From: a plasmid
Direction: 5' to 3' (one strand)
Assembly (NCBI RefSeq): GCF_054482525.1
Contig: NZ_JBTHVG010000007.1
DNA: 64,000 nucleotides
In this document: in pieces, positions 1-20,544 of the stretch
How positions within the stretch are numbered: the stretch's first letter is position 1
Layout of the letters: every line of letters starts with the position of its first letter
Position numbers and translations under genes: made by a program
The notes under the pieces: generated by a model
Told to the model about the DNA's origin: nothing
The model's input: the letters and a program-made list of their open reading frames with translations, nothing else
Database searches by the model: none

Positions 1-329
1 CCATAGCTGGAGATGCCGAGCGCAAAAAGGATCAAGGCTATGGCAGACGGCAGCGTGAAGCCAGCCCAAGCAGCCAGCGCCCCGCTGTATCCAGCCCGAG
101 ACAGTCCTACCGCTATGCCGACCTGGCTGCTTGCAGGCCCTGGCAAGAACTGACAAAGCGCGACCAAGTCAGCATAGCTCCGTTCGGAGAGCCAGCGCCG
201 CCGTGTGACAAATTCGGCGCGGAAGTAGCCCAAGTGCGCAATGGGGCCGCCAAAAGATGTCAATCCAAGCCGCAGAAAAATAAGAAAGACCGACCATGGT
301 CTGCTGTCATCGGTAGGGTTATTCGTCAT
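1..329 (-). CDS. chrA: Chromate transporter ChrA, 5' portion (gene runs off the window start)
   Basis: Minus-strand translation reads MTNNPTDDSRPWSVFLIFLRLGLTSFGGPIAHLGYFRAEFVTRRRWLSE..., matching the ChrA N-terminus as I recall it; fits the known sul1-orf5(truncated)-chrA arrangement. Confidence 0.6.
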   Translation of the reverse strand, partial: MTNNPTDDSRPWSVFLIFLRLGLTSFGGPIAHLGYFRAEFVTRRRWLSERSYADLVALCQFLPGPASSQVGIAVGLSRAGYSGALAAWAGFTLPSAIALILFALGISSY

Positions 330-484
330 ACTTTCGCCTTCATGATCTGCAACGAGTTGATCAATAATAAGCGAAATTCGATAACGAAATTCGATATAAA
401 TCTAGAAAAAAATACCTCTATGTGTACTACGCAGTTTTAGCTGTGGCTTTCACAGGAGCACGCTTACTTACGGCTTAGCGTGCT

Positions 485-688
485 TTATTTTCCGTTTTCT
501 GAGGCGATCCCTAGGAGCTCGGATCTCAGGACGAAGGTCTCCGCGAATGTCCGGTCGATCCGCGCGACGTCCCAGGCGGGCGTTCCCTTGGCGGACATCC
601 ACGCCGCAGCGTCGTGCATCAGCCGCACAACCTCGTCGATATCACCCGAGCAGGCGACCCGAACGTTCGGAGGCTCCTCGCTGTCCAT
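485..688 (-). pseudogene. Truncated orf5 (GNAT acetyltransferase) of the integron 3'-conserved segment
   Basis: MDSEEPPNVRVACSGDIDEVVRLMHDAAAWMSAKGTPAWDVARIDRTFAETFVLRSELL matches the orf5 N-terminus, then diverges and stops after about 59 native codons. Confidence 0.7.
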
Positions 689-815
689 TCGCTCCCCTGG
701 CGCGGTATGAACCGCCGCCTCATAGTGCAGTTTGATCCTGACGAGCCCAGCATGTCTGCGCCCACCTTCGCGGAACCTGACCAGGGTCCGCTAGCGGGCG
801 GCCGGAAGGTGAATG

Positions 816-1655
816 CTAGGCATGATCTAACCCTCGGTCTCTGGCGTCGCGACTGCGAAATTTCGCGAGGGTTTCCGAGAAGGTGATTGCGCTTCGCAGA
901 TCTCCAGGCGCGTGGGTGCGGACGTAGTCAGCGCCATTGCCGATCGCGTGAAGTTCCGCCGCAAGGCTCGCTGGACCCAGATCCTTTACAGGAAGGCCAA
1001 CGGTGGCGCCCAAGAAGGATTTCCGCGACACCGAGACCAATAGCGGAAGCCCCAACGCCGACTTCAGCTTTTGAAGGTTCGACAGCACGTGCAGCGATGT
1101 TTCCGGTGCGGGGCTCAAGAAAAATCCCATCCCCGGATCGAGGATGAGCCGGTCGGCAGCGACCCCGCTCCGTCGCAAGGCGGAAACCCGCGCCTCGAAG
1201 AACCGCACAATCTCGTCGAGCGCGTCTTCGGGTCGAAGGTGACCGGTGCGGGTGGCGATGCCATCCCGCTGCGCTGAGTGCATAACCACCAGCCTGCAGT
1301 CCGCCTCAGCAATATCGGGATAGAGCGCAGGGTCAGGAAATCCTTGGATATCGTTCAGGTAGCCCACGCCGCGCTTGAGCGCATAGCGCTGGGTTTCCGG
1401 TTGGAAGCTGTCGATTGAAACACGGTGCATCTGATCGGACAGGGCGTCTAAGAGCGGCGCAATACGTCTGATCTCATCGGCCGGCGATACAGGCCTCGCG
1501 TCCGGATGGCTGGCGGCCGGTCCGACATCCACGACGTCTGATCCGACTCGCAGCATTTCGATCGCCGCGGTGACAGCGCCGGCGGGGTCTAGCCGCCGGC
1601 TCTCATCGAAGAAGGAGTCCTCGGTGAGATTCAGAATGCCGAACACCGTCACCAT
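816..1655 (-). CDS. sul1: Sulfonamide-resistant dihydropteroate synthase Sul1
   Basis: 279-aa product [28 protein letters not shown]...; start overlaps qacEdelta1 stop as in the 3'-CS. Confidence 0.95.
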
Positions 1656-1996
1656 GGCGTCGGCCTCCGCAGCGACTTCCACGATGGGGATCGGGCGAGC
1701 AAAAAGGCAGCAATTATGAGCCCCATACCTACAAAGCCCCACGCATCAAGCTTTTGCCCATGAAGCAACCAGGCAATGGCTGTAATTATGACGACGCCGA
1801 GTCCCGACCAGACTGCATAAGCAACACCGACAGGGATGGATTTCAGAACCAGAGAAAGAAAATAAAATGCGATGCCATAACCGATTATGACAACGGCGGA
1901 AGGGGCAAGCTTAGTAAAGCCCTCGCTAGATTTTAATGCGGATGTTGCGATTACTTCGCCAACTATTGCGATAACAAGAAAAAGCCAGCCTTTCAT
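1649..1996 (-). CDS. qacEdelta1: QacEdelta1 small multidrug resistance efflux protein
   Basis: 115-aa [30 protein letters not shown]...; position immediately upstream of sul1. Confidence 0.9.
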
Positions 1997-2201
1997 GATA
2001 TATCTCCCAATTTGTGTAGGGCTTATTATGCACGCTTAAAAATAATAAAAGCAGACTTGACCTGATAGTTTGGCTGTGAGCAATTATGTGCTTAGTGCAT
2101 CTAACGCATAGTTGAGCGGCGGGCGCAGCCCGTCCGCTTGAACGCCGAGTTAGGCATCAGATGCCCTCGGCGCGGGTCGATGCACTTTTCGCACATGCCG
2201 C

Positions 2202-2990
2202 TCAACGCAAGATTCTCTCAATCGTTGCTTTGGCATATCGAACGAACGCGGCCGTCTCTTCGACGCGCATTGCTAGGTCGTCGTCCTCGCTACCCAGGTA
2301 CGCCGCGCGTGCCTTGCAGATGAGGGGCCGATGCTCGGCAGGCAAACGCTCCGATACCCATGCGGCAGCAACGTCCTTAGGAGCAATGAGACCAGTTGAA
2401 GCGCTGTACCAAATGCGAGCAAGAGCAAGAACGACGTTCCGCTCGTCACCCTTCCAATCCGACTCTGCATTCCACTGGGCAATAGTGTCGAAAAGCGCCT
2501 TGGAGAAATGCTCCTTCGGCACCGGCTCGAAAAACGTGGCTGCGGATGGGCCTAGAAGCGCAAGGCTGTGTTGCCTCGCCTTGGTCAGCAAAATCGCAAG
2601 ATCGTGATCCAGAACGGCAGGCTCGAACGTTCCGGAAAGGATGTCGTGGCGGAGCCACTCACCGAACTGAAGCTCACGCCGCGCCGGATAGCGCCAAGGC
2701 ACTACTTCGCTTCGAGCGACAACAGTTAGCTCCAGCGGTCGCCATGTTCCGCCATCGCCTGGCGGTGATGAGACTTTCAGCAAATCGAGCATTAGCGCCT
2801 GCCGGAGCGAATCGTTAGGTGCGGCGCTGACGGTCACGAGCAAGTCTATGTCGCTGTCCGGCTTCAGCCCTCCATCGATCGCAGATCCGAACAGGTGGAT
2901 TGTGTCCAGTGTCGCAGCCAGATGGCGCTCGATCACCGCGCGAGCGTGGGACAGCTGCTTGAAAACTTGTGCAGGGAAAAATTCACCCAT
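2202..2990 (-). CDS. aadA: Aminoglycoside 3''-adenylyltransferase AadA (streptomycin/spectinomycin resistance); allele not determined, possibly aadA16-like
   Basis: 262-aa ORF with AadA motifs (ERHL...HL[FY]GSA[IV]DGGLKP.SDIDLLVTV...GDERNVVL.L.RIWYSA.TG.IAPKDVAA.W); gene cassette between dfrA and 3'-CS with attC-like sequence downstream. Confidence 0.9.
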   Translation of the reverse strand: MGEFFPAQVFKQLSHARAVIERHLAATLDTIHLFGSAIDGGLKPDSDIDLLVTVSAAPNDSLRQALMLDLLKVSSPPGDGGTWRPLELTVVARSEVVPWRYPARRELQFGEWLRHDILSGTFEPAVLDHDLAILLTKARQHSLALLGPSAATFFEPVPKEHFSKALFDTIAQWNAESDWKGDERNVVLALARIWYSASTGLIAPKDVAAAWVSERLPAEHRPLICKARAAYLGSEDDDLAMRVEETAAFVRYAKATIERILR

Positions 2991-3120
2991 GATGCCTAAC
3001 GTTAAGTTCAGCGGCAGCTTTTAAGTTGCGGCTTTGTGGAATACTTTTGCGCAGCAAAACCACAAAGACGCGACTTAAAAGCTGTCCAAGGAGCGAAGCG
3101 ACTGGTGCTGCAACGCATTG

Positions 3121-3594
3121 TTAGCCTTTTTTCCAAATCTGGTATGTATAATTTATATTAGACATAAAAAACTGTTCAAAAACCAAATTGAAATTCTCAG
3201 GCATTATAGGGAATTTGATATCACCTTCGACTTCAACGTGAACAGTAGACAAATGAATTATATCTGCTTTTTCAATAAGGCTATTATAGATTTGACCCCC
3301 GCCAGAGACATATACATGATCTGTAACTTTTGATAGCTCTTTCAAAGCATTTTCTATTGAAGGAAAAACTAGGACGTTTTCATTTGAGCTTGAAATTCCG
3401 TTCTTTGACACTACTGCATATTTGCGATTTGGAAGAACACCCATAGAGTCAAATGTTTTTCTTCCGACAAGGAGCCATTGATTATATGTGAGCGCTTTAA
3501 AGAGTAGTTGCTCACCTTTTACTGACCACGGGATATCAGGACCACTACCGATTACGCCATTTTCTGACACTGCAGAAATCAATGATATTTTCAA
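3121..3594 (-). CDS. dfrA: Trimethoprim-resistant dihydrofolate reductase DfrA (dfrA1-like family; allele not determined, possibly dfrA27-like)
   Basis: 157 codons from a TTG start preceded by AAGGGAG; product [48 protein letters not shown]... typical of dfrA1-family; first cassette next to attI1. Confidence 0.85.
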
Positions 3595-3751
3595 TTTAAC
3601 TCCCTTAATGGCTAACTTTGTTTTAGGGCGACTGCCCTGCTGCGTAACATCGTTGCTGCTCCATAACATCAAACATCGACCCACGGCGTAACGCGCTTGC
3701 TGCTTGGATGCCCGAGGCATAGACTGTACAAAAAAACAGTCATAACAAGCC

Positions 3752-4765
3752 ATGAAAACCGCCACTGCGCCGTTACCACCGCTGCGTTCGGTCAAGGTTC
3801 TGGACCAGTTGCGTGAGCGCATACGCTACTTGCATTACAGTTTACGAACCGAACAGGCTTATGTCCACTGGGTTCGTGCCTTCATCCGTTTCCACGGTGT
3901 GCGTCACCCGGCAACCTTGGGCAGCAGCGAAGTCGAGGCATTTCTGTCCTGGCTGGCGAACGAGCGCAAGGTTTCGGTCTCCACGCATCGTCAGGCATTG
4001 GCGGCCTTGCTGTTCTTCTACGGCAAGGTGCTGTGCACGGATCTGCCCTGGCTTCAGGAGATCGGAAGACCTCGGCCGTCGCGGCGCTTGCCGGTGGTGC
4101 TGACCCCGGATGAAGTGGTTCGCATCCTCGGTTTTCTGGAAGGCGAGCATCGTTTGTTCGCCCAGCTTCTGTATGGAACGGGCATGCGGATCAGTGAGGG
4201 TTTGCAACTGCGGGTCAAGGATCTGGATTTCGATCACGGCACGATCATCGTGCGGGAGGGCAAGGGCTCCAAGGATCGGGCCTTGATGTTACCCGAGAGC
4301 TTGGCACCCAGCCTGCGCGAGCAGCTGTCGCGTGCACGGGCATGGTGGCTGAAGGACCAGGCCGAGGGCCGCAGCGGCGTTGCGCTTCCCGACGCCCTTG
4401 AGCGGAAGTATCCGCGCGCCGGGCATTCCTGGCCGTGGTTCTGGGTTTTTGCGCAGCACACGCATTCGACCGATCCACGGAGCGGTGTCGTGCGTCGCCA
4501 TCACATGTATGACCAGACCTTTCAGCGCGCCTTCAAACGTGCCGTAGAACAAGCAGGCATCACGAAGCCCGCCACACCGCACACCCTCCGCCACTCGTTC
4601 GCGACGGCCTTGCTCCGCAGCGGTTACGACATTCGAACTGTGCAGGATCTGCTCGGCCATTCCGACGTCTCTACGACGATGATTTACACGCATGTGCTGA
4701 AAGTTGGCGGTGCCGGAGTGCGCTCACCGCTTGATGCGCTGCCGCCCCTCACTAGTGAGAGGTAG
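3752..4765 (+). CDS. intI1: Class 1 integron integrase IntI1
   Basis: 337-aa [53 protein letters not shown]..., tyrosine recombinase motifs (HTLRHSFAT...[15 protein letters not shown]). Confidence 0.95.
3839..3867 (-). promoter_or_regulatory. Integron cassette promoter Pc (TGGACA - 17 bp - TAAACT, the hybrid PcH1 configuration) inside the 5' end of intI1
   Basis: Minus-strand -35 TGGACA (3862-3867) and -10 TAAACT (3839-3844) with 17-bp spacer, directed into the cassette array. Confidence 0.6.
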
Positions 4766-4942
4766 GGCAGCGCAAGTCAATCCTGGCGGATTCACTACCC
4801 CTGCGCGAAGGCCATCGGTGCCGCATCGAACGGCCGGTTGCGGAAAGTCCTCCCTGCGTCCGCTGATGGCCGGCAGCAGCCCGTCGTTGCCTGATGGATC
4901 CAACCCCTCCGCTGCTATAGTGCAGTCGGCTTCTGACGTTCA

Positions 4943-4967
4943 GTGCAGCCGTCTTCTGAAAACGACA
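4943..4967. repeat. IRi, 25-bp terminal inverted repeat at the intI1 end of the class 1 integron
   Basis: Sequence gtgcagccgtcttctgaaaacgaca is the complement of TGTCGTTTTCAGAAGACGGCTGCAC. Confidence 0.75.
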
Positions 4968-5318
4968 ATGGAGGTGGTAGCCGAGGGTGTGGAAACACCC
5001 GACTGCCTTGCGTGGTTGCGGCAGGCGGGTTGCGACACGGTGCAGGGTTTCCTGTTCGCCAGGCCGATGCCGGCGGCGGCCTTCGTCGGCTTCGTCAACC
5101 AATGGAGGAACACCACCATGAACGCCAATGAACCGAGCACCAGTTGCTGCGTGTGCTGCAAGGAAATCCCGCTCGATGCCGCCTTCACGCCGGAAGGGGC
5201 CGAGTACGTGGAGCATTTCTGCGGGCTGGAGTGCTATCAGCGCTTCCAGGCGCGGGCCAGCACTGCGACCGAAACCAGCGTCAAACCGGACGCTTGTGAT
5301 TCGCCGCCGTCAGGTTGA
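4968..5318 (+). CDS. tnpM: TnpM (C-terminal remnant of urf2, EAL-domain protein) of Tn21
   Basis: 116-aa ORF starting immediately after IRi: [42 protein letters not shown]...; Tn21 backbone context. Confidence 0.7.
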
Positions 5319-5443
5319 GGCATACCCTAACCTGATGTCAGATGCCATGTGTAAATTGCGTCAGGATAGGATTGAATTTTGAATTTATTGACATATCTCG
5401 TTGAAGGTCATAGAGTCTTCCCTGACATTTTGCAGGGAATTCC

Positions 5444-5601
5444 ATGACTGGACAGCGCATTGGGTATATCAGGGTCAGCACCTTCGACCAGAACCCGGAA
5501 CGGCAACTGGAAGGCGTCAAGGTTGATCGCGCTTTTAGCGACAAGGCATCCGGCAAGGATGTCAAGCGTCCGCAACTGGAAGCGCTGATAAGCTTCGCCC
5601 G
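5444..5601 (+). pseudogene. tnpR: Tn21 resolvase tnpR, 5' fragment truncated by IS26
   Basis: MTGQRIGYIRVSTFDQNPERQLEGVKVDRAFSDKASGKDVKRPQLEALISFAR then the IS26 inverted repeat; serine recombinase N-terminus. Confidence 0.8.
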
Positions 5602-6421
5602 GGCACTGTTGCAAAGTTAGCGATGAGGCAGCCTTTTGTCTTATTCAAAGGCCTTACATTTCAAAAACTCTGCTTACCAGGCGCATTTCGCCCAGGGGAT
5701 CACCATAATAAAATGCTGAGGTCTGGCCTTTGCGTAGTGCACGCATCACCTCAATACCTTTGATGGTGGCGTAAGCCGTCTTCATGGATTTAAATCCCAG
5801 CGTGGCGTTGATTATCCGTTTCAGTTTGCCATGATCGCATTCAATCACGTTGTTCCGGTACTTAATCTGTCGGTGTTCAACGTCAGACGGGCACCGGCCT
5901 TCGCGTTTGAGCAGAGCAAGCGCGCGACCATAGGCGGGCGCTTTATCCGTGTTGATGAATCGTGGGATCTGCCACTTCTTCACGTTGTTGAGGATTTTAC
6001 CCAGAAACCGGTATGCAGCTTTGCTGTTACGACGGGAGGAGAGATAAAAATCGACAGTGCGGCCCCGGCTGTCGACGGCCCGGTACAGATACGCCCAGCG
6101 GCCATTGACCTTCACGTAGGTTTCATCCATGTGCCACGGGCAAAGATCGGAAGGGTTACGCCAGTACCAGCGCAGCCGTTTTTCCATTTCAGGCGCATAA
6201 CGCTGAACCCAGCGGTAAATCGTGGAGTGATCGACATTCACTCCGCGTTCAGCCAGCATCTCCTGCAGCTCACGGTAACTGATGCCGTATTTGCAGTACC
6301 AGCGTACGGCCCACAGAATGATGTCACGCTGAAAATGCCGGCCTTTGAATGGGTTCATGTGCAGCTCCATCAGCAAAAGGGGATGATAAGTTTATCACCA
6401 CCGACTATTTGCAACAGTGCC
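5602..6421 (-). mobile_element. IS26 copy 1 (820 bp, IS6 family)
   Basis: Bounded by GGCACTGTTGCAAA terminal inverted repeats; encodes Tnp26. Confidence 0.95.
5654..6358 (-). CDS. tnpA: IS26 transposase Tnp26 (copy 1; carries a Thr where copies 2 and 3 have Ala in ...RKGQ[T/A]SAFYY...)
   Basis: MNPFKGRHFQRDIILWAVRWYCKYGISYRELQEMLAERGVNVDHSTIYRWVQRYAPEMEK... Confidence 0.95.
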   Translation of the reverse strand: MNPFKGRHFQRDIILWAVRWYCKYGISYRELQEMLAERGVNVDHSTIYRWVQRYAPEMEKRLRWYWRNPSDLCPWHMDETYVKVNGRWAYLYRAVDSRGRTVDFYLSSRRNSKAAYRFLGKILNNVKKWQIPRFINTDKAPAYGRALALLKREGRCPSDVEHRQIKYRNNVIECDHGKLKRIINATLGFKSMKTAYATIKGIEVMRALRKGQTSAFYYGDPLGEMRLVSRVFEM

Positions 6422-7713
6422 GTCGTAAACGGTCGAGTTTCATGATCCGTTTGAGGTGGGCGAAAAGCATCTCCACCTTCTTTCGTTCGCAGCGAGAGAC
6501 GAGGTACTCCGGTGTCTTGGCGATGCGTCGAGCCACGTCGCGGGCAGCCTCATGGATGCTGCGGACGATCTTCCGATTCGGCGTGTTGGGGCAGCATTTC
6601 GCTTTCAACGGGCAGGTGGCGCAGTCGGTTTGGCTGGAGCGGTAAATGACGGTTTTGGCCTTAGTTACCCGCGACCTTTGCTGGGTGAAGGCGCGCCATT
6701 CACTGCGTAGCGGTTTGCCGGCTGGGCAGCGATATTCATTGGCGTCCTGACTCCAGTGAAAGTCGTTACTGGAGAGGCTGTCGTCCTTGCGCTCGGTCTT
6801 GTCCCACACCGGCACATGCGGTTCGATGTCCTTTTCTTCGACCATCCAGGCCAGCATCGGGGCGGTGCCATAAGCGGTATCGCCGATAAGGCGTTCCGGT
6901 GTGAGATCGAACTGCGCCTCGACACGCTCGACCATCGTCCTAGTCGAATCGACTTCGGCGGTACGGTGCGCCGGGGTAGCTTCCACGTCCATGATCACAC
7001 CGTGCTCAGTGTCGATCAGGTAATTCGTGGAGTAGGCAAAAAAGGCCGGGCCACCTGGCGCTGCTGTCCAACGGGACTGAGGATCAGTGAGCGAAATTTT
7101 CTTGGGAAGAGCCTCAGCCAGCGCCTCTTCATCAAGGGCTTCGAGGTACTCGCGCACTGCGCGGCTGCTGAGCTTTGGATCGTTCCAATCGACCTCATCT
7201 CCCGCCACCCCACGTTGCCGGCTGGCATCCGCCTTAATGATGCTGGCGTCGACGGCGAAACCTTCACCCTTGACTAGGCCGGCTGCCATGCAGCGCCGCA
7301 GCACCTCATTGAATAACCAGCGGAATAGATCGCTGTCACGAAAACGCCCATGGCGATTCTTCGAGAAGGTCGAGTGATTGGGGACTTCGTCTTCCAGACC
7401 CAACCGGCAGAACCAGCGATAGGCCAGGTTCAGGTGCACCTCTTCGCACAATCGCCGCTCGGAACGAATGCCATAGCAAGTAGCCGACGACCAGCATGCG
7501 CACCATCAACTCCGGGTCAATCGAGGGACGCCCGATGGGGCTATAGAAATCTGCCAGGTAGGCACGTAGATCACTGAGATCCAAGCACTGGTCGATGCTG
7601 CGCAGGAGATGTTGGGCCGGGACGTGATCTTCCAGATTGAACGAGTAGAACAGGCGCTGCTGTCCTCCCGGTAACTGTCCCATCATGCTGTTCGCCCCCA
7701 CGCTCGCTGACAA
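6422..7713 (-). pseudogene. IS5/IS1182-family transposase, frameshifted and 3'-truncated by IS26
   Basis: Two overlapping minus-strand frames (N-part MSASVGANSMMGQLPGGQQRLFYSFNLEDHVPAQHLLRSIDQ...; C-part with DDE-like region) that together resemble one transposase; reading frame runs into the IS26 end. Confidence 0.55.
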
Positions 7714-7800
7714 AGCAATTTTGCCAACGGCATGGGGAGGCCGCTACTTTTTCAACAGAATCGGCCGCACACAGCCATTCGGCTCAACAGAACCCTGCCT

Positions 7801-8958
7801 TTACCCCACCAAACTCCGGAAACTCGCCCGGTAGTCCGTCGGCTTGAGATGCACATGTTGGCTGAGGTCGCCGGGTAGCGTGAACAGGCGCGGACCGTCC
7901 CGAAACTGGAACACGCGATACAGATGGAATTGATCGCCCGCCTCCTTGGAGAATTCGAGTTCGTTGTGGCTGACCAAGAAAGACGAGCCTACCCCGCCAT
8001 TGGTGGTTTTCACCTCGATGAAGCGCTCATGGGCGTCCTCTTCGAACGACAGGATGTCGAACCCCGCACCGTCTCCCTGGGTGTCGGACACCCAATCCAG
8101 CCGCTGAAAAAGCTCTGGGTGGCCGAGCTCGGTCAGGCGTTGCTGTTCGTAGCCAATCACCCACTGCTCCCCTGCCCGGCCCAGCTTGCGGTTGGCTTCA
8201 TCGCGAGCGGCATAATCGAACTTTCGCGGTAGGCGTTGCCGTAGAGATGCCGGGGTACGCACAAGCACTTCACGGGCGGGTGGTTCTACCAAAGCCGCTC
8301 GGTAGGTTTTGTCACCCGGAAGTTTTACCTCCTCCAGGGCATCGACAAGAGCGCCGACCGTCTGCTGATGTTCCAGAACGTAGGCGTGTACGGATTTACG
8401 CAGCAGCAGTTGGCTGTTGCCGCGTGGCTTGTAGCCGTTGATATAGGGCAGGCCCAGGGCATCGAGTACGGCGCTAATGTTCTGGTGCTTGAGCTCGACT
8501 GAAGACTTGCTGCGACCGTTCAGCAGTTGGCGCAGTGCCTGGTTGTGCTCGGACTTGTTGTACGGCTCCCCAGCCGCCTCGGCACGCAGCATGTCGAAAT
8601 AGTCTTCGACCGTGGCCAGGACCTCTTCTTCGGACCAGTCTTCGCCGATGCGAATGATGCGAAACCCGAGCCGCGTCAGCGCCGGAACGACGGTCGCCTC
8701 GCCACCGGAGAAGCTGTCAGCAGTGAGCGGGCCCTGCTCGGGAAATTGCTTGCCGAAGGCCACACCGGCGATGGCCTTGGAATCGCAATCGGTGCCGGTC
8801 TTCGGATCACGTACCAGGAAGTCGCGGGACTTGCCGTAGCCGTGGCGCGCCAGGAATTTCGTGCGGCCCAGTTGCACGAACTCATCGATGGCAGCCTGCA
8901 CGGCGGCGGGGCTTCGAAGCTGGGAGAGTTGAGACACAGGGTCCTTCCTTACTGTCAT
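7801..8958 (-). CDS. Putative restriction-endonuclease-like protein: N-terminal DNA-binding-like domain plus C-terminal DUF3883/NOV-C-like PD-(D/E)xK nuclease domain (function inferred)
   Basis: 385 aa from ATG at 8958 (MTVRKDPVSQ...); C-terminal region ...GAGFDILSFEEDAHERFIEVKTTNGG...HLYRVFQF resembles a D...E.K nuclease core. The ORF track extends to 9114 but the upstream part overlaps a separate small ORF. Confidence 0.45.
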   Translation of the reverse strand: MTVRKDPVSQLSQLRSPAAVQAAIDEFVQLGRTKFLARHGYGKSRDFLVRDPKTGTDCDSKAIAGVAFGKQFPEQGPLTADSFSGGEATVVPALTRLGFRIIRIGEDWSEEEVLATVEDYFDMLRAEAAGEPYNKSEHNQALRQLLNGRSKSSVELKHQNISAVLDALGLPYINGYKPRGNSQLLLRKSVHAYVLEHQQTVGALVDALEEVKLPGDKTYRAALVEPPAREVLVRTPASLRQRLPRKFDYAARDEANRKLGRAGEQWVIGYEQQRLTELGHPELFQRLDWVSDTQGDGAGFDILSFEEDAHERFIEVKTTNGGVGSSFLVSHNELEFSKEAGDQFHLYRVFQFRDGPRLFTLPGDLSQHVHLKPTDYRASFRSLVG

Positions 8959-8987
8959 GGTGTGCCGGGAACCGCCGAGCCACGAGA

Positions 8988-9233
8988 TTATGAGTAGCCC
9001 CTGAACAGAAACGTCACGATAAAAGCCGTGAACGCCACCAGGCCCATTAAATCCCTTGCGTATTTGCAGCCCGTGCTGTCCAAACCTGTACCAGGTCCGA
9101 TCAACACGCTCCAACCATTGAGGTACGAAAACACCGCCTGACCGAACAAAAAATGCGTGATAGCCGCCGCAGCCATGACGCCGGAATCGTCAGACAGGCT
9201 GTAGCTGTTGACCATTGCCCTGTACGCCTGCAT
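8988..9233 (-). CDS. Small hydrophobic protein (81 aa), possibly co-transcribed with the downstream nuclease-like gene
   Basis: ORF MQAYRAMVNSY...GLVAFTAFIVTFLFRGYS with hydrophobic stretches; ends about 30 bp before the ATG of the next gene on the same strand. Confidence 0.25.
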   Translation of the reverse strand: MQAYRAMVNSYSLSDDSGVMAAAAITHFLFGQAVFSYLNGWSVLIGPGTGLDSTGCKYARDLMGLVAFTAFIVTFLFRGYS

Positions 9234-9519
9234 CTGAAATGGCTATTGCCCTGATGGGAGCCGGCTTTTCAGCCACCGACACCAGCGATGCCGTCAATAT
9301 TCTTTACCCGATAACCATGACCGTACAAGCTAACAAGGCCTGGCAAGCCAGCGGACTTAAAAAGTCTTTTTTTCTACCATCCCACAAAAAAGTTCGTGGT
9401 GGAGAAAAGATAAGCTATGCAAGGCTTTAGGAGACGTGGTTTTTCAGGATGACGAAGAACGATTCGGCGCTAGGTGCAACATAGGTGCATCGCACGAGCG
9501 CTAGGAACGGCGAAAAAAG

Positions 9520-9552
9520 GCGGACGTGGCGAAATCGGTAGACGCAGCAGAC
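9520..9552 (+). tRNA. tRNA-Leu(UAA) exon 1 fragment (positions 1-32: acceptor 5' strand, D-arm, anticodon-stem 5' strand), cut by IS26
   Basis: GCGGACG-UG-GCGAAAUCGGUAGACGC-A-GCAGA-C has a tRNA-Leu-like D-arm; acceptor strand is exactly complementary to CGUCCGC at 12929-12935 on the minus strand. Confidence 0.6.
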
Positions 9553-10372
9553 GGCACTGTTGCAAATAGTCGGTGGTGATAAACTTATCATCCCCTTTTG
9601 CTGATGGAGCTGCACATGAACCCATTCAAAGGCCGGCATTTTCAGCGTGACATCATTCTGTGGGCCGTACGCTGGTACTGCAAATACGGCATCAGTTACC
9701 GTGAGCTGCAGGAGATGCTGGCTGAACGCGGAGTGAATGTCGATCACTCCACGATTTACCGCTGGGTTCAGCGTTATGCGCCTGAAATGGAAAAACGGCT
9801 GCGCTGGTACTGGCGTAACCCTTCCGATCTTTGCCCGTGGCACATGGATGAAACCTACGTGAAGGTCAATGGCCGCTGGGCGTATCTGTACCGGGCCGTC
9901 GACAGCCGGGGCCGCACTGTCGATTTTTATCTCTCCTCCCGTCGTAACAGCAAAGCTGCATACCGGTTTCTGGGTAAAATCCTCAACAACGTGAAGAAGT
10001 GGCAGATCCCACGATTCATCAACACGGATAAAGCGCCCGCCTATGGTCGCGCGCTTGCTCTGCTCAAACGCGAAGGCCGGTGCCCGTCTGACGTTGAACA
10101 CCGACAGATTAAGTACCGGAACAACGTGATTGAATGCGATCATGGCAAACTGAAACGGATAATCAACGCCACGCTGGGATTTAAATCCATGAAGACGGCT
10201 TACGCCACCATCAAAGGTATTGAGGTGATGCGTGCACTACGCAAAGGCCAGGCCTCAGCATTTTATTATGGTGATCCCCTGGGCGAAATGCGCCTGGTAA
10301 GCAGAGTTTTTGAAATGTAAGGCCTTTGAATAAGACAAAAGGCTGCCTCATCGCTAACTTTGCAACAGTGCC
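9553..10372 (+). mobile_element. IS26 copy 2 (820 bp)
   Basis: GGCACTGTTGCAAA inverted repeats; Tnp26 ORF on plus strand; 8 bp to its left (9545-9552) are CAGCAGAC. Confidence 0.95.
9616..10320 (+). CDS. tnpA: IS26 transposase Tnp26 (copy 2)
   Basis: Translation identical to copy 3. Confidence 0.95.
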   Translation: MNPFKGRHFQRDIILWAVRWYCKYGISYRELQEMLAERGVNVDHSTIYRWVQRYAPEMEKRLRWYWRNPSDLCPWHMDETYVKVNGRWAYLYRAVDSRGRTVDFYLSSRRNSKAAYRFLGKILNNVKKWQIPRFINTDKAPAYGRALALLKREGRCPSDVEHRQIKYRNNVIECDHGKLKRIINATLGFKSMKTAYATIKGIEVMRALRKGQASAFYYGDPLGEMRLVSRVFEM

Positions 10373-11381
10373 GGACTTTTCAAGTCTCGGAAGGTTTCTT
10401 CAATCTGCATTCGCTTCGAATAGATATTAACAAGTTGTTTGGGTGTTCGAATTTCAACAGGTAAGTTAGTTGCTAGAACCCATGGCTCCTTTGCCGACGC
10501 TGAGTAGATTTTAGGTGACGGGTGGTGACAATGAGTCCGTGTCGAGCGCTGATTTTTTCGGCCTTTAGAGCGAGATTTATACAATAGAATTTGGCATGAG
10601 ATTGGATTGCTTTTAGTCAGCCTCTTATAGCCTAAAGTCTTTGAGTGACTAGATGACATATCATGTAAGTTGCTGATAGGTTTCCAGTTTTCCGCTCCTA
10701 GGTCTGCATATTGTACTTTTCCTCTTACTCGACTTAACCAGTACCAACCCAGCTTCTCAACGGATTTATACCATGGCACTTTAAAGCCAGCATCACTGAC
10801 AATGAGCGGTGTGGTGTTACTCGGTAGAATGCTCGCAAGGTCGGCTAGAAATTGGTCATGAGCTTTCTTTGAACATTGCTCTGAAAGCGGGAACGCTTTC
10901 TCATAAAGAGTAACAGAACGACCGTGTAGTGCGACTGAAGCTCGCAATACCATAAGTCGTTTTTGCTCACGAATATCAGACCAGTCAACAAGTACAATGG
11001 GCATCGTATTGCCCGAACAGATAAAGCTAGCATGCCAACGGTATACAGCGAGTCGCTCTTTGTGGAGGTGACGATTACCTAACAATCGGTCGATTCGTTT
11101 GATGTTATGTTTTGTTCTCGCTTTGGTTGGCAGGTTACGGCCAAGTTCGGTAAGAGTGAGAGTTTTACAGTCAAGTAATGCGTGGCAAGCCAACGTTAAG
11201 CTGTTGAGTCGTTTTAAGTGTAATTCGGGGCAGAATTGGTAAAGAGAGTCGTGTAAAATATCGAGTTCGCACATCTTGTTGTCTGATTATTGATTTTTCG
11301 CGAAACCATTTGATCATATGACAAGATGTGTATCCACCTTAACTTAATGATTTTTACCAAAATCATTAGGGGATTCATCAG
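10373..11381 (-). mobile_element. Truncated IS10 (outer end plus 5' two-thirds of the transposase gene), cut by IS26
   Basis: Outer end ...CTGATGAATCCCCTAATGATTTTGGTAAAAATCATTAAG (complement at 11343-11381); partial transposase MCELDILHDSLYQFCPELHLKRLNSLTLACHALLDCKTLTLTELGRNLPTKARTKHNIKRIDRLLGNRHLHKERLAVYRWH... (IS4 family, IS10-like) whose frame runs into IS26. Confidence 0.85.
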
Positions 11382-11416
11382 CGTATAGTGTTTTGCAGTT
11401 TAGAGGAGATATCGCG

Positions 11417-12277
11417 ATGCATACGCGGAAGGCAATAACGGAGGCGCTTCAAAAACTCGGAGTCCAAACCGGTGACCTCTTGATGGTGCATGCCTCACTT
11501 AAAGCGATTGGTCCGGTCGAAGGAGGAGCGGAGACGGTCGTTGCCGCGTTACGCTCCGCGGTTGGGCCGACTGGCACTGTGATGGGATACGCGTCGTGGG
11601 ACCGATCACCCTACGAGGAGACTCTGAATGGCGCTCGGCTGGATGACGAAGCCCGCCGTACCTGGCTGCCGTTCGATCCCGCAACAGCCGGGACTTACCG
11701 TGGGTTCGGCCTGCTGAATCAATTTCTGGTTCAAGCCCCCGGCGCGCGGCGCAGCGCGCACCCCGATGCATCGATGGTCGCGGTTGGTCCGCTGGCTGAA
11801 ACGCTGACGGAGCCTCACGAACTCGGTCACGCCTTGGGGGAAGGATCGCCCGTCGAGCGGTTCGTTCGCCTTGGCGGGAAGGCCCTGCTGTTGGGTGCGC
11901 CGCTAAACTCCGTTACCGCATTGCACTACGCCGAGGCGGTTGCCGATATCCCCAACAAACGGTGGGTGACGTATGAGATGCCGATGCTTGGAAGAGACGG
12001 TGAAGTCGCCTGGAAAACGGCATCGGATTACGATTCAAACGGCATTCTCGATTGCTTTGCTATCGAAGGAAAGCCGGATGCGGTTGAAACTATAGCAAAT
12101 GCTTACGTGAAGCTCGGTCGCCATCGAGAAGGTGTCGTGGGCTTTGCTCAGTGCTACCTGTTCGACGCGCAGGACATCGTGACGTTCGGCGTCACCTATC
12201 TTGAGAAGCATTTCGGAACCACTCCGATCGTGCCTCCGCACGAGGCCGTCGAGCGCTCTTGCGAGCCTTCAGGTTAG
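11417..12277 (+). CDS. aac(3)-II: Aminoglycoside N(3)-acetyltransferase AAC(3)-II (gentamicin/tobramycin resistance)
   Basis: 286-aa product MHTRKAITEALQKLGVQTGDLLMVHASLKAIGPVEGGAETVVAALRSAVGPTGTVMGYASWDRSPYEETLNGARLDDEARRTW... Confidence 0.95.
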   Translation: MHTRKAITEALQKLGVQTGDLLMVHASLKAIGPVEGGAETVVAALRSAVGPTGTVMGYASWDRSPYEETLNGARLDDEARRTWLPFDPATAGTYRGFGLLNQFLVQAPGARRSAHPDASMVAVGPLAETLTEPHELGHALGEGSPVERFVRLGGKALLLGAPLNSVTALHYAEAVADIPNKRWVTYEMPMLGRDGEVAWKTASDYDSNGILDCFAIEGKPDAVETIANAYVKLGRHREGVVGFAQCYLFDAQDIVTFGVTYLEKHFGTTPIVPPHEAVERSCEPSG

Positions 12278-12289
12278 AGGCCGTCGACA

Positions 12290-12832
12290 ATGATAATCTG
12301 GATCAACGGACCTTTCGGCGCCGGAAAGACGACGCTCGCTAAGCGGCTGCGCGATCGGCGTTCCAAATCGCTGATCTTTGACCCCGAGGAAATCGGGTTC
12401 GTGGTGAAAGAAACGGTCCCCATGCCAGCGAGCGGAGACTATCAGGATCTCCCCTTGTGGAGGGGACTTACGATCGCGGCGGTCAGGGAGATTCGAAGGA
12501 ATTACTCGCAGGACATCATCATCCCAATGACGCTCGTGCACCCGGACTATCTGACTGAGATACTCGACGGGGTAAGGCGGATCGACGATCAGCTGCTGCA
12601 CATCTTTCTGACGCTCAACGAGGACCTATTGCGTCACCGGATCGCGAACCAGACCATGCATCCTGACCCGAATCGAAATGCGGAGATTCGAGAGTGGCGA
12701 TTAGCGAATGTCGCCCGATGCTTGGCCGCAAGGGAACGGCTTCCATGCACAACCCGTGTTCTCGATAGTGGTGCACACACCAGCGATGAACTCGCAGCGA
12801 TGGTGCTCGACGGAATCGATGGGCGCACCTGA
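12290..12832 (+). CDS. tmrB: TmrB-like ATP-binding protein (tunicamycin resistance family)
   Basis: 180-aa ORF with P-loop MIIWINGPFGAGKTTLAKRL; known aac(3)-II/tmrB pairing. Confidence 0.85.
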   Translation: MIIWINGPFGAGKTTLAKRLRDRRSKSLIFDPEEIGFVVKETVPMPASGDYQDLPLWRGLTIAAVREIRRNYSQDIIIPMTLVHPDYLTEILDGVRRIDDQLLHIFLTLNEDLLRHRIANQTMHPDPNRNAEIREWRLANVARCLAARERLPCTTRVLDSGAHTSDELAAMVLDGIDGRT

Positions 12833-12924
12833 TCGCCTTCGACGCCTGCGCAAAGCGTAGCGCGAGGGTGGCGGGCTCACGACCAAACGCCCAGAGGTCG
12901 ATCATCGCAGGGATGTTTGGCTTT

Positions 12925-12975
12925 GTGGTGCGGACGACGGGACTCGAACCCGTACTCTCACAGAGAAGCAGATTT
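12925..12975 (-). tRNA. tRNA-Leu(UAA) exon 2 (A35 to CCA: anticodon AA, anticodon-stem 3' strand, long variable arm, T-arm, acceptor 3' strand)
   Basis: Minus-strand RNA AAAA-UCUGC-UUCUCUGUGAGAGU-ACGGGUUCGAGUCCCGU-CGUCCGC-A-CCA; stems pair with the exon 1 fragment at 9520-9552. Confidence 0.6.
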
Positions 12976-13189
12976 TCGTACCACCTCGACTTTCGCCGCC
13001 GTCTGATGACGTTCGTGGTCTGGACTGTCCCTTCGCCATTGCCCGAAGGCTTTAGGCGCCGCCCGTCCAGTCTCTACACCTTCCCCCGAAGGGGCTTGGC
13101 TCGGGATTGGCTTAGGGTATTGCCCGTTAGCGTTCCCCGACTTTGAGCGGTTCTACTCCGCGGATTTCCCCGCGGGCACTCCAATTTTA
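12976..13189 (-). ncRNA. Group I (tRNA-Leu-type) intron, about 214 nt, inserted between U34 and A35 of tRNA-Leu(UAA)
   Basis: Follows exon ...CUU; ends with G before exon 2; contains elements recalled from cyanobacterial tRNA-Leu and Azoarcus tRNA-Ile introns (CCCGAGCCAAGCC; GAAGGUGUAGAGACUGGACGGG...CCUAA). Confidence 0.6.
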
Positions 13190-13199
13190 AAGTCTGCTG

Positions 13200-14019
13200 G
13201 GCACTGTTGCAAAGTTAGCGATGAGGCAGCCTTTTGTCTTATTCAAAGGCCTTACATTTCAAAAACTCTGCTTACCAGGCGCATTTCGCCCAGGGGATCA
13301 CCATAATAAAATGCTGAGGCCTGGCCTTTGCGTAGTGCACGCATCACCTCAATACCTTTGATGGTGGCGTAAGCCGTCTTCATGGATTTAAATCCCAGCG
13401 TGGCGTTGATTATCCGTTTCAGTTTGCCATGATCGCATTCAATCACGTTGTTCCGGTACTTAATCTGTCGGTGTTCAACGTCAGACGGGCACCGGCCTTC
13501 GCGTTTGAGCAGAGCAAGCGCGCGACCATAGGCGGGCGCTTTATCCGTGTTGATGAATCGTGGGATCTGCCACTTCTTCACGTTGTTGAGGATTTTACCC
13601 AGAAACCGGTATGCAGCTTTGCTGTTACGACGGGAGGAGAGATAAAAATCGACAGTGCGGCCCCGGCTGTCGACGGCCCGGTACAGATACGCCCAGCGGC
13701 CATTGACCTTCACGTAGGTTTCATCCATGTGCCACGGGCAAAGATCGGAAGGGTTACGCCAGTACCAGCGCAGCCGTTTTTCCATTTCAGGCGCATAACG
13801 CTGAACCCAGCGGTAAATCGTGGAGTGATCGACATTCACTCCGCGTTCAGCCAGCATCTCCTGCAGCTCACGGTAACTGATGCCGTATTTGCAGTACCAG
13901 CGTACGGCCCACAGAATGATGTCACGCTGAAAATGCCGGCCTTTGAATGGGTTCATGTGCAGCTCCATCAGCAAAAGGGGATGATAAGTTTATCACCACC
14001 GACTATTTGCAACAGTGCC
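13200..14019 (-). mobile_element. IS26 copy 3 (820 bp)
   Basis: GGCACTGTTGCAAA inverted repeats; 8 bp to its left (13192-13199) are GTCTGCTG, the reverse complement of CAGCAGAC. Confidence 0.95.
13252..13956 (-). CDS. tnpA: IS26 transposase Tnp26 (copy 3)
   Basis: Translation identical to copy 2. Confidence 0.95.
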   Translation of the reverse strand: MNPFKGRHFQRDIILWAVRWYCKYGISYRELQEMLAERGVNVDHSTIYRWVQRYAPEMEKRLRWYWRNPSDLCPWHMDETYVKVNGRWAYLYRAVDSRGRTVDFYLSSRRNSKAAYRFLGKILNNVKKWQIPRFINTDKAPAYGRALALLKREGRCPSDVEHRQIKYRNNVIECDHGKLKRIINATLGFKSMKTAYATIKGIEVMRALRKGQASAFYYGDPLGEMRLVSRVFEM

Positions 14020-15095
<1,076 letters not shown>

Positions 15096-15251
15096 TGAGA
15101 GCAGAGATAGCGCTGATGTCCGGCGGTGCTTTTGCCGTTACGCACCACCCCGTCAGTAGCTGAACAGGAGGGACAGCTGATAGAAACAGAAGCCACTGGA
15201 GCACCTCAAAAACACCATCATACACTAAATCAGTAAGTTGGCAGCATCACC
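15096..15251 (-). mobile_element. IS1 fragment (left inverted repeat plus first ~33 codons of insA), interrupted by the Tn2/Tn3 IRR
   Basis: Complement of GGTGATGCTGCCAACTTACTGATTTAGTGTATGATGGTGTTTTTGAGGTGCTCCAGTGGCTTCTGTTTCTATCAGCTGTCCCTCC...; ends where the Tn3-family IR begins. Confidence 0.85.
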
Positions 15252-16535
15252 TCCCTGTTTAAAATCATAATTTGGTTGTTCTGTTCTTGAGTTATTAAGT
15301 AGAGTTCTTATCAGTGTTTGCCAAGCATGATTGATAAATTTATTTTCTGATTCTTTAAAATATCGTCTGATTAAAGCACATAAATCTTCGACACTTTTCT
15401 GACGAGCGCTAGCTGCCCAACGGCCCCCTTCGGTTTGCACCATTGAACGTTGTACACTGTCTCCTAACTGAGCGATAAATTTCTGTTCATCGTCAAGTTG
15501 CATGTTTTCATTTATGATTAATTCATACAAAGCAAGAAAAACAGCTTGATAGTAACGAGGACATTCTTGAGATGAAGATGCATTGCCCAGAATGTGTGAT
15601 CTAAAGTTCAAATTATTTGCATCAAATAATTTTTGAATCATCTCATAAACGAAGAGGTAATTATTGACAATTTTATCTGCACCATTTGTCTGAATGTAAT
15701 TCTCTAATTGAGTTCGTGTATGGATTGCATGACTCGTCGAACCTTCACCGTAAAATGTATCGAGCGATGTTGATCCTGATGTTGGCTTATCATCTAAAAA
15801 TATATAGCCCAAGATATTTGCAACTAACTCTTCATCGTCAGAGTCTCTAATGCTAGGCCTACTAATGATATGATTTCTAATATAGAAATGATTGTCTATA
15901 TTTATTCCATAATCGAGTCCATCATTGCAAATTGATATGTTATGTATTTTATTCAGTCCCATTATATCGCTATGTGTAGTATCTCCTCTTATAATTGTCG
16001 ATATTTTCCTTACTAACTCTGAAAAATTACTAACGCACCCCGCACTTCGTAGTTCTTGTTTTGATAAAATTTTACCATTGGAATTTATGCGTCGAAACAC
16101 TTCGTCAATGTGGTCCTCTGTTGAAGAGTATTCAGATATAGCAAATCTATAGCGAGCAATTAATGTAGAACTTTCGCGGGATAGCACTGGCTCTTTTTGT
16201 TGAAGTTTACCACTGTCTTTTAGTTGTTTTGTTAATGCAATGGCATCTAAATTAAAGTATTTACCATTTAATGAAAATCGCTGCTCAATAAAACTCATTA
16301 AAGCTTCTAGTCTTTGCATTCCATCAAGGATTTCTCTTTTGTTGTCAATGGAAACAAACAATAGCAAAGGGATAGGGTATTGCTGAGTCATTGATGAAAT
16401 CAGTGCTGTTTTCTCTTCGAGGGACCATACTAATTTTCTTTGGTATCTTCGATTTATAATTAATTTATCATCCAGATACCACTCGTATAATTCTTCTGCT
16501 GTCTTGGAGTCAATATCTAAGTTTTCATTAGCCAT
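15225..16535 (-). CDS. DUF262 (ParB-like nuclease/NTPase, GmrSD-family N-terminal domain) protein, C-terminus replaced by IS1 sequence
   Basis: 436-aa ORF with DUF262-like motifs (RRYQRKLVWSLEEK...ILDGMQRLEAL); about 33% GC; last 8 codons and stop (GDAANLLI*) are encoded by the IS1 inverted repeat. Confidence 0.5.
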   Translation of the reverse strand: MANENLDIDSKTAEELYEWYLDDKLIINRRYQRKLVWSLEEKTALISSMTQQYPIPLLLFVSIDNKREILDGMQRLEALMSFIEQRFSLNGKYFNLDAIALTKQLKDSGKLQQKEPVLSRESSTLIARYRFAISEYSSTEDHIDEVFRRINSNGKILSKQELRSAGCVSNFSELVRKISTIIRGDTTHSDIMGLNKIHNISICNDGLDYGINIDNHFYIRNHIISRPSIRDSDDEELVANILGYIFLDDKPTSGSTSLDTFYGEGSTSHAIHTRTQLENYIQTNGADKIVNNYLFVYEMIQKLFDANNLNFRSHILGNASSSQECPRYYQAVFLALYELIINENMQLDDEQKFIAQLGDSVQRSMVQTEGGRWAASARQKSVEDLCALIRRYFKESENKFINHAWQTLIRTLLNNSRTEQPNYDFKQGGDAANLLI

Positions 16536-16819
16536 TAGATGTATCTCGAGTATTTAGTTAAGAAACTGATAGGTCAGTATTTGCATCAATGTTCATTGAA
16601 TTTGTATCCGAAGTCAATCTGATGTAGGAACTTCAAAACTGCGCAAAACACGCAAATACGCACAAGAAAGTAGGGCTGCGCTTGGAATTCGGAAAATAAA
16701 CCACATCAAAACTACTTTTTAGCCAAATAACGTTTGGGAATCACCAGAATGGTGGGACAACAGCGGTTTTAGTGCCCTAAATCGTACGTTTTCATCCAGT
16801 TGCCCCTCAAACCCCATGT

Positions 16820-17152
16820 TCAAGTCAGAATAGTGGACAGGCGGCCAAGAACTTCGTTCATGATAGTCTCCGGAACCCGTTCGAGTCGTTTTCCGCCCCG
16901 TGCTTTCATATCAATTGTCCGGGGTTGATCGCAACGTACAACACCTGTGGTACGTATGCCAACACCATCCAACGACACCGCAAAGCCGGCAGTGCGGGCA
17001 AAATTGCCTCCGCTGGTTACGGGCACAACAACAGGCAGGCGGGTCACGCGATTAAAGGCCGCCGGTGTGACAATCAGCACCGGCCGCGTTCCCTGCTGCT
17101 CATGACCTGCGGTAGGATCAAGCGAGACAAGCCAGATTTCCCCTCTTTCCAT
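16820..17152 (-). CDS. pemK: PemK (MazF/Kid-family endoribonuclease toxin)
   Basis: MERGEIWLVSLDPTAGHEQQGTRPVLIVTPAAFNRVTRLPVVVPVTSGGNFARTAGFAVSL... Confidence 0.9.
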   Translation of the reverse strand: MERGEIWLVSLDPTAGHEQQGTRPVLIVTPAAFNRVTRLPVVVPVTSGGNFARTAGFAVSLDGVGIRTTGVVRCDQPRTIDMKARGGKRLERVPETIMNEVLGRLSTILT

Positions 17153-17153
17153 G

Positions 17154-17411
17154 TCAGATTTCCTCCTGACCAGTCGCCGGTGCATCCAGCCATTCTCGTT
17201 CTTCAGCTGATATTTCAGCATTCGGATCACACTGTGCCAGTAGCTCAGCCAGTGAATATTGCGGGCGTCTGTACGGCTCAACAATCAGCCGGCCATTATC
17301 AATGACCATGCCAACTTCATTATCTGTGCCCAGAGACAGCGCATTCAGCAGTGCCGGTGGGACGGTCAGCATAACTGAGCCGCCAACCCTCTTCAGTCGG
17401 GTGGTATGCAT
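17154..17411 (-). CDS. pemI: PemI antitoxin
   Basis: 85-aa ORF MHTTRLKRVGGSVMLTVPPALLNALSLGTDNEVGMVIDNGRLIVEPY... directly upstream of pemK. Confidence 0.85.
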   Translation of the reverse strand: MHTTRLKRVGGSVMLTVPPALLNALSLGTDNEVGMVIDNGRLIVEPYRRPQYSLAELLAQCDPNAEISAEEREWLDAPATGQEEI

Positions 17412-17503
17412 TCTTCACCTCCATAAAAGTTATATTTAAATATAACATCCACTAAAAAAACACACCAGGCTTTAACGCACAATGTTTAATAAAAATATAA
17501 CTT

Positions 17504-20428: not shown

Positions 20429-20495
20429 ACCATCCTGCACTTACAATGCACAGAAGGAGTGAGCACAGAAAGAAGTCTTGAACTTTTCCGGGCAT
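20421..20495 (-). CDS. repA6: RepA leader peptide Tap (repA6), 24 aa
   Basis: ATGCCCGGAAAAGTTCAAGAC... = [24 protein letters not shown], near-identical to the R100/R1 tap peptide as I recall it. Confidence 0.7.
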
Positions 20496-20544
20496 ATAAC
20501 TATACTCCCCGCATAGCTGAATTGTTGGCTATGCGGTTTTATGG

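Follow-up and report, generated by a model that had tools for sequence, protein, structure and literature searches.

On the minus strand of the plasmid stretch analysed here, a window of 64,000 nucleotides, positions 474 to 4967 almost certainly represent (with a probability of about 0.97) an In54-type clinical class 1 integron that has a full-length integrase gene and occupies the Tn21 position, and it is just as nearly certain that this integron is part of a widespread IS26-bounded resistance module. The element is already known, and is an ordinary antibiotic-resistance gene-capture element (trimethoprim, streptomycin, sulfonamide); the module, In54 and the inverted repeat IRchrA were all described in PMC5725488, the single paper from which the In54 number is taken. 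The module would read IS26-mph(A)-mrx-mphR-IS6100-padR-chrA-IRchrA-Δorf5-sul1-qacEΔ1-aadA5-dfrA17-intI1-IRi-ΔTn21-IS26, its left part (padR, IS6100, mph(A) and IS26) lying outside the window and being reconstructed from the identical copy in plasmid p2HS-C-2. Most of the components that define class 1 were found, namely intI1, attI1 with a cassette junction, a Pc promoter inside intI1, two attC sites and a 3'-CS with qacEΔ1-sul1. The features, allele identities and breakpoints (Table 1), like the prevalence figures given below, were observed directly, and no sequence feature conflicts with the reading as an In54-type integron.

Table 1. Features of the integron and its flanks, with positions counted in the window.
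Feature	Position	Strand	Details
chrA (chromate efflux transporter)	1..329	-	First 109 codons; TIGR00937, E = 8e-39; continues past window start
chrA leader	330..473	-	144 bp; tandem 12-mer CGAAATTCGATA at 372..383 and 385..396
IRchrA	474..511	-	38-bp Tn21-family terminal inverted repeat, GGGATCGCCTCAGAAAACGGAAAATAAAGCACGCTAAG; outer end abuts orf5 remnant
orf5 remnant (GNAT gene)	511..688	-	First 178 of 501 nt, 59 of 166 codons
3'-CS	511..2104	-	About 1,594 bp retained; 99.4% identity to R100 11887..13523; starts TTAGAT after aadA5 attC
sul1	816..1655	-	NF000294 Sul1, 641.5 bits (cut-off 600); AMRFinder 100%; intact
qacEΔ1	1649..1996	-	NF000276 QacE family, 206 bits; annotated QacE delta 1, 100%; intact
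aadA5 cassette	2999..2105	-	895 bp; gene 2990..2202; attC 2155..2099; GTTAGGC and GTTAGAT core sites set boundaries
dfrA17 cassette	3615..3000	-	616 bp; gene 3594..3121 (TTG start); attC 3126..2994
attI1	3616..3680 (inner limit approximate)	-	Identical to In2 attI1 up to crossover
P2 region	3748..3723	-	TTGTTA-14 bp-TACAGT; GGG insertion absent
LexA box	3724..3739		CTGTACAAAAAAACAG; overlaps intI1 promoter; intact
intI1	3752..4765	+	Full length, 337 aa; NF011946, 799.5 bits over 1-337/337
Pc, variant PcH1	3867..3839	-	TGGACA, 17-bp spacer, TAAACT; inside intI1, facing cassettes
IRi	4943..4967	-	25-bp inverted repeat at integrase end; exact match; 0 expected by chance
Tn21 remnant	4968..5601	+	urf2/tnpM, 3' part only (EAL domain); res region; tnpR, first 158 nt (5444 onwards)
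IS26	5602..6421	-	820 bp; 14-bp terminal IRs at both ends; annotated IS26 on identical DNA

An initial annotation of this DNA had proposed an array of two cassettes, dfrA followed by aadA, in an arrangement already known and useful for typing. Identical copies in many plasmids and published surveys bear out the latter view, and the array is as proposed, the alleles being dfrA17 and aadA5. DfrA17 and AadA5 are each called at 100% in the AMRFinderPlus annotation of p2HS-C-2 (NZ_CP038182.1), from which the allele calls were carried over, its DNA being string-identical to window 1..6421. Profile searches placed the two products in the DfrA1-like (NF000330, 299 bits) and AadA (NF012157, 449.5 bits) families, respectively. 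The first cassette joins attI1 at the crossover AAACAAAG|TTAGCC (3616/3615), and both attC sites are intact, with R''/R' cores present. The dfrA17 attC folds into a hairpin of -36 kcal/mol (z = -6.1), and the bottom strand of the aadA5 attC into one of -14.5 kcal/mol (z = -2.0). A Shine-Dalgarno sequence belonging to dfrA17 itself (AAGGGAG) lies 6 nt before its TTG start.

The cassette promoter had likewise been recognised as PcH1-type from its TGGACA/TAAACT hexamers, an assignment that agrees with the PcH1 row (same hexamers, 17-bp spacer) in Table 1 of Jové et al. 2010 (PMC2791841). The pattern TGGACA-N17-TAAACT has a single match in the 64-kb window, against a chance expectation of 0.01, and the site was recovered independently by a generic sigma-70 scan, in which no other promoter directed at the cassettes was close to consensus, the matches inside the dfrA17 region being weak and no more than promoter-like. 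Its full sequence is TGGACATAAGCCTGTTCGGTTCGTAAACT, and the triplet preceding the -10 hexamer is TCG, so that it is neither a TGN-10 nor a TTN-10 variant. A 17-bp spacer is what distinguishes an active P2 (PMC2791841, Table 1); in the absence of the GGG insertion the spacer here is 14 bp and P2 is thus inactive, which leaves Pc as the sole cassette promoter. Transcription would start at Pc, on the strand opposite to intI1, and proceed through attI1 into dfrA17 and then aadA5; qacEΔ1 and sul1 follow in the 3'-CS. The association of this promoter with this array is a general one, since dfrA17-aadA5 was described as "invariably under the PcH1 promoter" (PMC11213556) and PcH1 was found in 55 of 55 dfrA17-aadA5 arrays (PMC9058876). 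PcH1 is of intermediate strength, measured elsewhere as about 4.5 times as strong as PcW and about one fifth as strong as PcS (PMC2791841). With this configuration, resistance to trimethoprim and streptomycin/spectinomycin should be expressed modestly and from Pc only, alongside sul1-mediated sulfonamide resistance.

The integrase product, annotated on identical DNA as IntI1 (WP_000845048.1, NZ_CP038182.1), is the R32_H39 variant (residues 31-39 are LRTEQAYVH), that is, the variant encoded with PcH1 (PMC2791841, Table 3). The LexA site overlaps PintI1 and is disrupted by the GGG insertion (PMC2791841); as the insertion is absent here and the box undamaged, intI1 expression is predicted to be under SOS control. 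Integrase activity, like promoter strength and SOS control, would be as in published measurements, which were obtained with the same promoter and integrase variants.

At the integrase end, the limit of 4967 set by the initial annotation coincides with the exact outer end of IRi. The DNA beyond it belongs to Tn21, with 99.75% identity between window 3613..5601 and R100 14334..16325, and the EAL-domain C-terminus of urf2/tnpM was also matched in the NCBIfam search. Tn21 tnpR is truncated at 5602 by IS26, which forms the right boundary of the resistance module. Of the pair IRi/IRt and the tni genes that characterise a class 1 integron, the window holds IRi only, with no tni genes and no second repeat (IRt) within 3 mismatches. 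Clinical integrons whose 3' end has been rearranged usually show this loss of IRt and tni. Without tni genes and IRt in the window, the integron is incapable of transposing by itself, and it moves along with IS26 and with the conjugative plasmid, of IncF type. The module of p2HS-C-2, which is identical, has a copy of IRt next to IS6100, oriented like IRi.

The opposite end of the integron was described initially as a 3'-CS cut inside orf5 that continues into chrA. The cut was confirmed by DNA alignment to R100 orf5 (11564..12064), which also identified the remnant: walking outwards, the first mismatch falls at window 510, the alignment stops at 511, and comparison with the intact 3'-CS of R100/Tn21 shows that 474..510 is not ordinary orf5. 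The open frame of orf5 extends for 8 extra codons into the inverted repeat, with a stop at 485, and the 67-aa product found no match in the NCBIfam search, being too short. It is also correct that chrA is the next gene, as would be expected from a direct orf5-chrA fusion produced by a simple or IS-mediated deletion that involved no transposon end. A direct continuation into chrA did not hold, however, because the 38-bp IRchrA and the 144-bp chrA leader intervene; the initial annotation had overlooked the repeat and had not given the strand of the integron. At the very point of the break there is a complete Tn21-family repeat, its outer end adjoining orf5, which differs from Tn21 IRtnp of R100 at 2 positions (36/38 identical) and from IRmer at 3. 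It resembles the 38-bp terminal repeats of the Tn21 family (Tn3 superfamily) not only in sequence but also as a target of IS5075, which in the sister plasmid pECAZ162_KPC is inserted within IRchrA, at 490/491. The IS family of IS5075 reportedly targets Tn21-family terminal repeats specifically, a finding attributed to Partridge and Hall (2003). Recognition by IS5075 in related plasmids and the naming of the repeat as IRchrA (PMC5725488) argue further for a transposon end, and a deletion fusion, rejected on the R100 alignment and the repeat at the break, is extremely unlikely. Under the preferred reading, orf5 would have been destroyed at nt 178 by the joining of the end of a Tn21-family element carrying chrA-padR; the lack of this element's other end prevents a reconstruction of the event.

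The position of the integron raises the question of its relationship with In2 of Tn21 (R100, NC_002134), which shares IRi next to urf2/tnpM as well as the 5'-CS and 3'-CS at >99% identity. It could be proposed that the present integron is In2 with its aadA1 cassette exchanged, still carrying PcW, an active P2 and a de-repressed integrase, and both the location of IRi and the Tn21 origin of the flanking urf2, res and tnpR sequences would fit this proposal. The two integrons differ, however, in that In2 has aadA1 only, PcW and an active P2 (GGG, 17-bp spacer), as opposed to dfrA17-aadA5, PcH1 and an inactive P2, and in that In2 has an intact orf5, beyond which lie IS1326/IS1353 and tni remnants with IRt, while here orf5 is cut by IRchrA. 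Within the 5'-CS the two differ only in the Pc -10 base (A here, G in In2; TAAACT versus TAAGCT) and in the GGG of P2, that is, at the two sites that define the promoters. The In2 promoter configuration was rejected for this integron on the finding of PcH1 and the 14-bp P2 spacer, and the proposal can practically be discarded. Cassette exchange alone is insufficient, since the 5'-CS promoter sites differ from those of In2, and it is more likely that the segment from 5'-CS to 3'-CS was replaced when integrons underwent homologous recombination with each other. The exact Tn21 position of In2 combined with a PcH1/no-GGG 5'-CS and an IRchrA-truncated 3'-CS suggests such a swap into a Tn21 backbone; tentatively, with the odds somewhat against it, the segment may have been introduced in this way, and the ΔintI1 form truncated by IS26 that is seen in pEC958-type ST131 plasmids would then descend from the present form with full-length intI1. 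A different view would take the integron for an inert relic, with its cassettes fixed and resistance independent of Pc, either through other promoters or because the integrase is never made. The lack of a tni module and IRt, the weak promoter-like matches in the dfrA17 region and an identical array in hundreds of genomes, which suggests little cassette turnover, are compatible with this view. Against it stand the full-length intI1, whose promoter and LexA box are undamaged, the two intact attC sites, the position of Pc as the only good consensus promoter towards the cassettes, and published work tying cassette expression to Pc (PMC2791841), all of which make an inert relic very unlikely.

At a coverage of 80% or more, the 5-kb unit occurs in 654 of 5,426 complete E. 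coli genomes and in no fewer than 692 plasmids; the orf5/IR junction was found in at least 1,478 plasmids. The closest system, p2HS-C-2, shares gene order, promoter variant, cassette alleles, orf5 breakpoint and IRchrA with the window. In pKP1814-3 and pEC958, intI1 was reported to be truncated by IS26 (PMC5725488), whereas here the gene is full length and IS26 cuts Tn21 tnpR, 634 bp beyond IRi. No record among the complete E. coli genomes covers at least 80% of window 1..25000; this larger mosaic is specific to the present plasmid, yet assembled from known pieces. The value of the element is practical only: it can be typed by PcH1, the inactive P2, IntI1 R32_H39, the |dfrA17|aadA5| array and orf5 nt 178 against IRchrA; its presence identifies the window as a carrier of the co-trimoxazole and macrolide resistance module of IncF plasmids, which is disseminated worldwide, and in plasmid epidemiology the exact breakpoints (511 and 5601/5602) are of use as lineage markers.

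The chrA element itself, annotated on identical DNA in NZ_CP038182.1 as chrA (WP_000184001.1), is a remnant and not a transposon: in the window it has a single inverted repeat, where the Tn21 family has a pair, and no tnpA or tnpR of its own. Its leader holds the 12-mer CGAAATTCGATA twice in tandem, with 0 occurrences expected by chance, and this repeat could act as an operator, hitherto undescribed, for the PadR regulator encoded downstream.

The integron at the start of the window, which the initial annotation had read as a class 1 element, was confirmed as observed and its interpretation is supported. By sequence, all parts are intact, orf5 excepted; the integron occupies the minus strand of the window, with intI1 on the plus strand and the parts under its control all running leftwards. 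The arrangement, known already, is extremely common, its value lying in typing and epidemiology.

Coordinates and supporting evidence of the integron and its flanks
Feature	Position	Strand	Evidence or remark
chrA, continues off window start	329..1	-	TIGR00937, E = 8e-39; annotated chrA in NZ_CP038182.1
IRchrA, complete 38-bp Tn21-family terminal inverted repeat, GGGATCGCCTCAGAAAACGGAAAATAAAGCACGCTAAG	474..511	-	2 mismatches to Tn21 IRtnp
3'-CS, starts TTAGATGCACTAAGC, ~1,594 bp	2104..511	-	motif boundaries
aadA gene	2990..2202	-	AadA family, score above cut-off
aadA5 cassette, 895 bp	2999..2105	-	motif boundaries
dfrA gene	3594..3121	-	DfrA1-like family, score above cut-off
dfrA17 cassette, 616 bp	3615..3000	-	motif boundaries
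attI1 crossover, AAACAAAG/TTAGCC	3616/3615	-	motif boundaries
LexA box, CTGTACAAAAAAACAG	3724..3739		intact
Second promoter region (P2)	3748..3723	-	TTGTTA-14 bp-TACAGT
intI1	3752..4765	+	ORF
IRi, TGTCGTTTTCAGAAGACGGCTGCAC	4943..4967	-	integrase-side integron end
IS26	5602..6421	-	interrupts Tn21 remnant

The pattern TGGACA-N17-TAAACT occurs once in the 64 kb, within intI1 at 3867..3839 (-) (pattern search; chance expectation ~0.01), and the same site was found by a generic sigma-70 scan made without prior knowledge. The PcH1 type proposed from these hexamers is thus matched exactly, 17-bp spacer included (Table 1 of Jové et al. 2010, PMC2791841). TCG precedes the -10 box, meaning that neither a TGN nor a TTN extended -10 is present. 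The spacer of P2 falls short of the 17 bp needed for activity (PMC2791841 Table 1). According to Jové et al. (PMC2791841), the LexA site and the intI1 promoter overlap, and a GGG insertion disrupts the site; here the site is intact because GGG is absent from the P2 region. Alignment of the attI1-Pc region with In2, the integron of Tn21 in plasmid R100 (NC_002134), served as a clean internal control. Across ~390 bp of 5'-CS it revealed only two differences: one base of the Pc -10 box (TAAACT in the window, TAAGCT in In2) and the GGG, which creates an active P2 in In2 but is missing from the window. With an NF011946 match of 799.5 bits over positions 1-337/337, IntI1 is full length, and its residues L31 R32 ... 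V38 H39 define the R32_H39 variant, which accompanies PcW and PcH1 (PMC2791841). Going by published measurements on the same variants, Pc would be the sole cassette promoter, dfrA17, as first cassette, would be expressed at a higher level than aadA5, and the integrase would be SOS-repressed and recombination-proficient; PcH1 is ~4.5 times as strong as PcW and reaches about one fifth of PcS (PMC2791841).

The array proved to hold two cassettes, dfrA then aadA, as initially read. The dfrA gene has a TTG start with a Shine-Dalgarno sequence (AAGGGAG) 6 nt upstream. PLSDB's AMRFinderPlus annotation of plasmid p2HS-C-2 (NZ_CP038182.1) calls DfrA17, AadA5, QacEΔ1 and Sul1, each at 100%, and these calls, which answer the allele check for dfrA and aadA, are valid for the window because its positions 1..6421 are string-identical to that record. 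Each attC site carries an inverse-core site and a core site, and the bottom strands of both fold into R''/R'-closed hairpins, that of dfrA17 (GGCTAAC...GTTAGGC) at -36 kcal/mol (z = -6.1) and that of aadA5 (GCCTAAC...GTTAGAT) at -14.5 kcal/mol (z = -2.0).

The 3'-CS had been described as cut inside orf5 and continuing into chrA. The first part stands: window 511..2144 shares 99.4% identity with the In2 3'-CS of R100 and the BLAST alignment ends at 511, the first mismatch in a base-by-base walk being at 510. The orf5 remnant retains 178 of 501 nt (59 of 166 codons), its frame continuing for eight foreign codons (GIASENGK) up to a stop at 485. A direct fusion to chrA is ruled out, since the outer end of the complete 38-bp IRchrA (474..511) adjoins the remnant and a 144-bp leader follows before chrA; window 471..513 is similar to both Tn21 ends (BLAST against R100). 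What the 3'-CS joins is one end of a remnant Tn21-family element, whose first gene, past the leader, is chrA; this join is the sole refinement needed. Tn21-family terminal repeats are specific targets of IS4321/IS5075. In the otherwise identical region of pECAZ162_KPC, IS5075 is inserted inside the repeat at window 490/491. This predicts an outer piece of 21/22 bp, consistent with PMC5725488, where IRchrA is named and an IS5075-disrupted 22-bp remnant described; the two constitute independent supports for a transposon-end join. Within the chrA leader (372..396), the 12-mer CGAAATTCGATA occurs twice in tandem with a 1-bp gap (0 matches expected by chance), and may be a putative operator for the downstream PadR-family regulator.

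The 5-kb unit is found at 100% identity in many E. coli IncF plasmids, and at least 80% of it in at least 692 PLSDB plasmids and in 654 of 5,426 complete E. coli genomes. At least 1,478 plasmids from Klebsiella, Escherichia, Citrobacter and other genera carry the 160-bp orf5/IRchrA junction. Matches end exactly at window 511 in intact-orf5 records and at 490 in IS-interrupted ones, a pattern explained by one ancestral junction event. The array is named In54 in PMC5725488, where its module is said to be widely disseminated; dfrA17-aadA5 was reported "invariably under the PcH1 promoter" (PMC11213556), with PcH1 in 55/55 such arrays (PMC9058876).

On the integrase side, the initially proposed end (4967) is exactly that of IRi. 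Beyond it lies Tn21 sequence with 99.75% identity to R100, made up of urf2/tnpM (3' part), res, and tnpR limited to its first 158 nt. Neither IRt nor tni genes were found within the 64-kb window, which precludes movement of the integron in the manner of a Tn402-type element. Outside the shared stretch, p2HS-C-2 carries an IRt copy (6741..6765) between IS6100 and padR; it has the same orientation as IRi, so the two cannot serve as paired transposon ends. Its module, ordered IS26-mph(A)-mrx-mphR-IS6100-padR-chrA-...-intI1-ΔTn21-IS26, is identical to that of the window over 1..6421.

The window belongs to an IncFII/F-type conjugative multiresistance plasmid, with blaTEM-1, aac(3)-IId, pemIK, repA, finO, traX, traI and the F tra operon, and contains three IS26 copies. 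At 6421/6422 IS26 interrupts an IS1182-family (ISCfr1-like) transposase fragment (6422..7713), whose frame is broken into two ORFs (6405..7451 and 7336..7713). A third IS26 copy is in inverted orientation, and segment 10373..13199 (aac(3)-IId/tmrB-like) is inverted relative to pZ0117EC0036-1, which lacks the copy numbered IS26#2 (9553..10372). The 8-bp CAGCAGAC at 9545..9552, left of IS26#2, recurs in reverse-complement form at 13192..13199, left of IS26#3: the signature of intramolecular replicative IS26 transposition. Every piece of window 1..25000 has 97-100% identity to known plasmids, no complete E. coli genome record holds at least 80% of it in one place, and the mosaic order appears specific to this plasmid. 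Within the mosaic, beside resistance genes, a DUF3883 ("NO VEIN"-type) protein (7801..9114) and a DUF262/GmrSD-type restriction endonuclease domain protein (15225..16535) may represent putative defence-related cargo.
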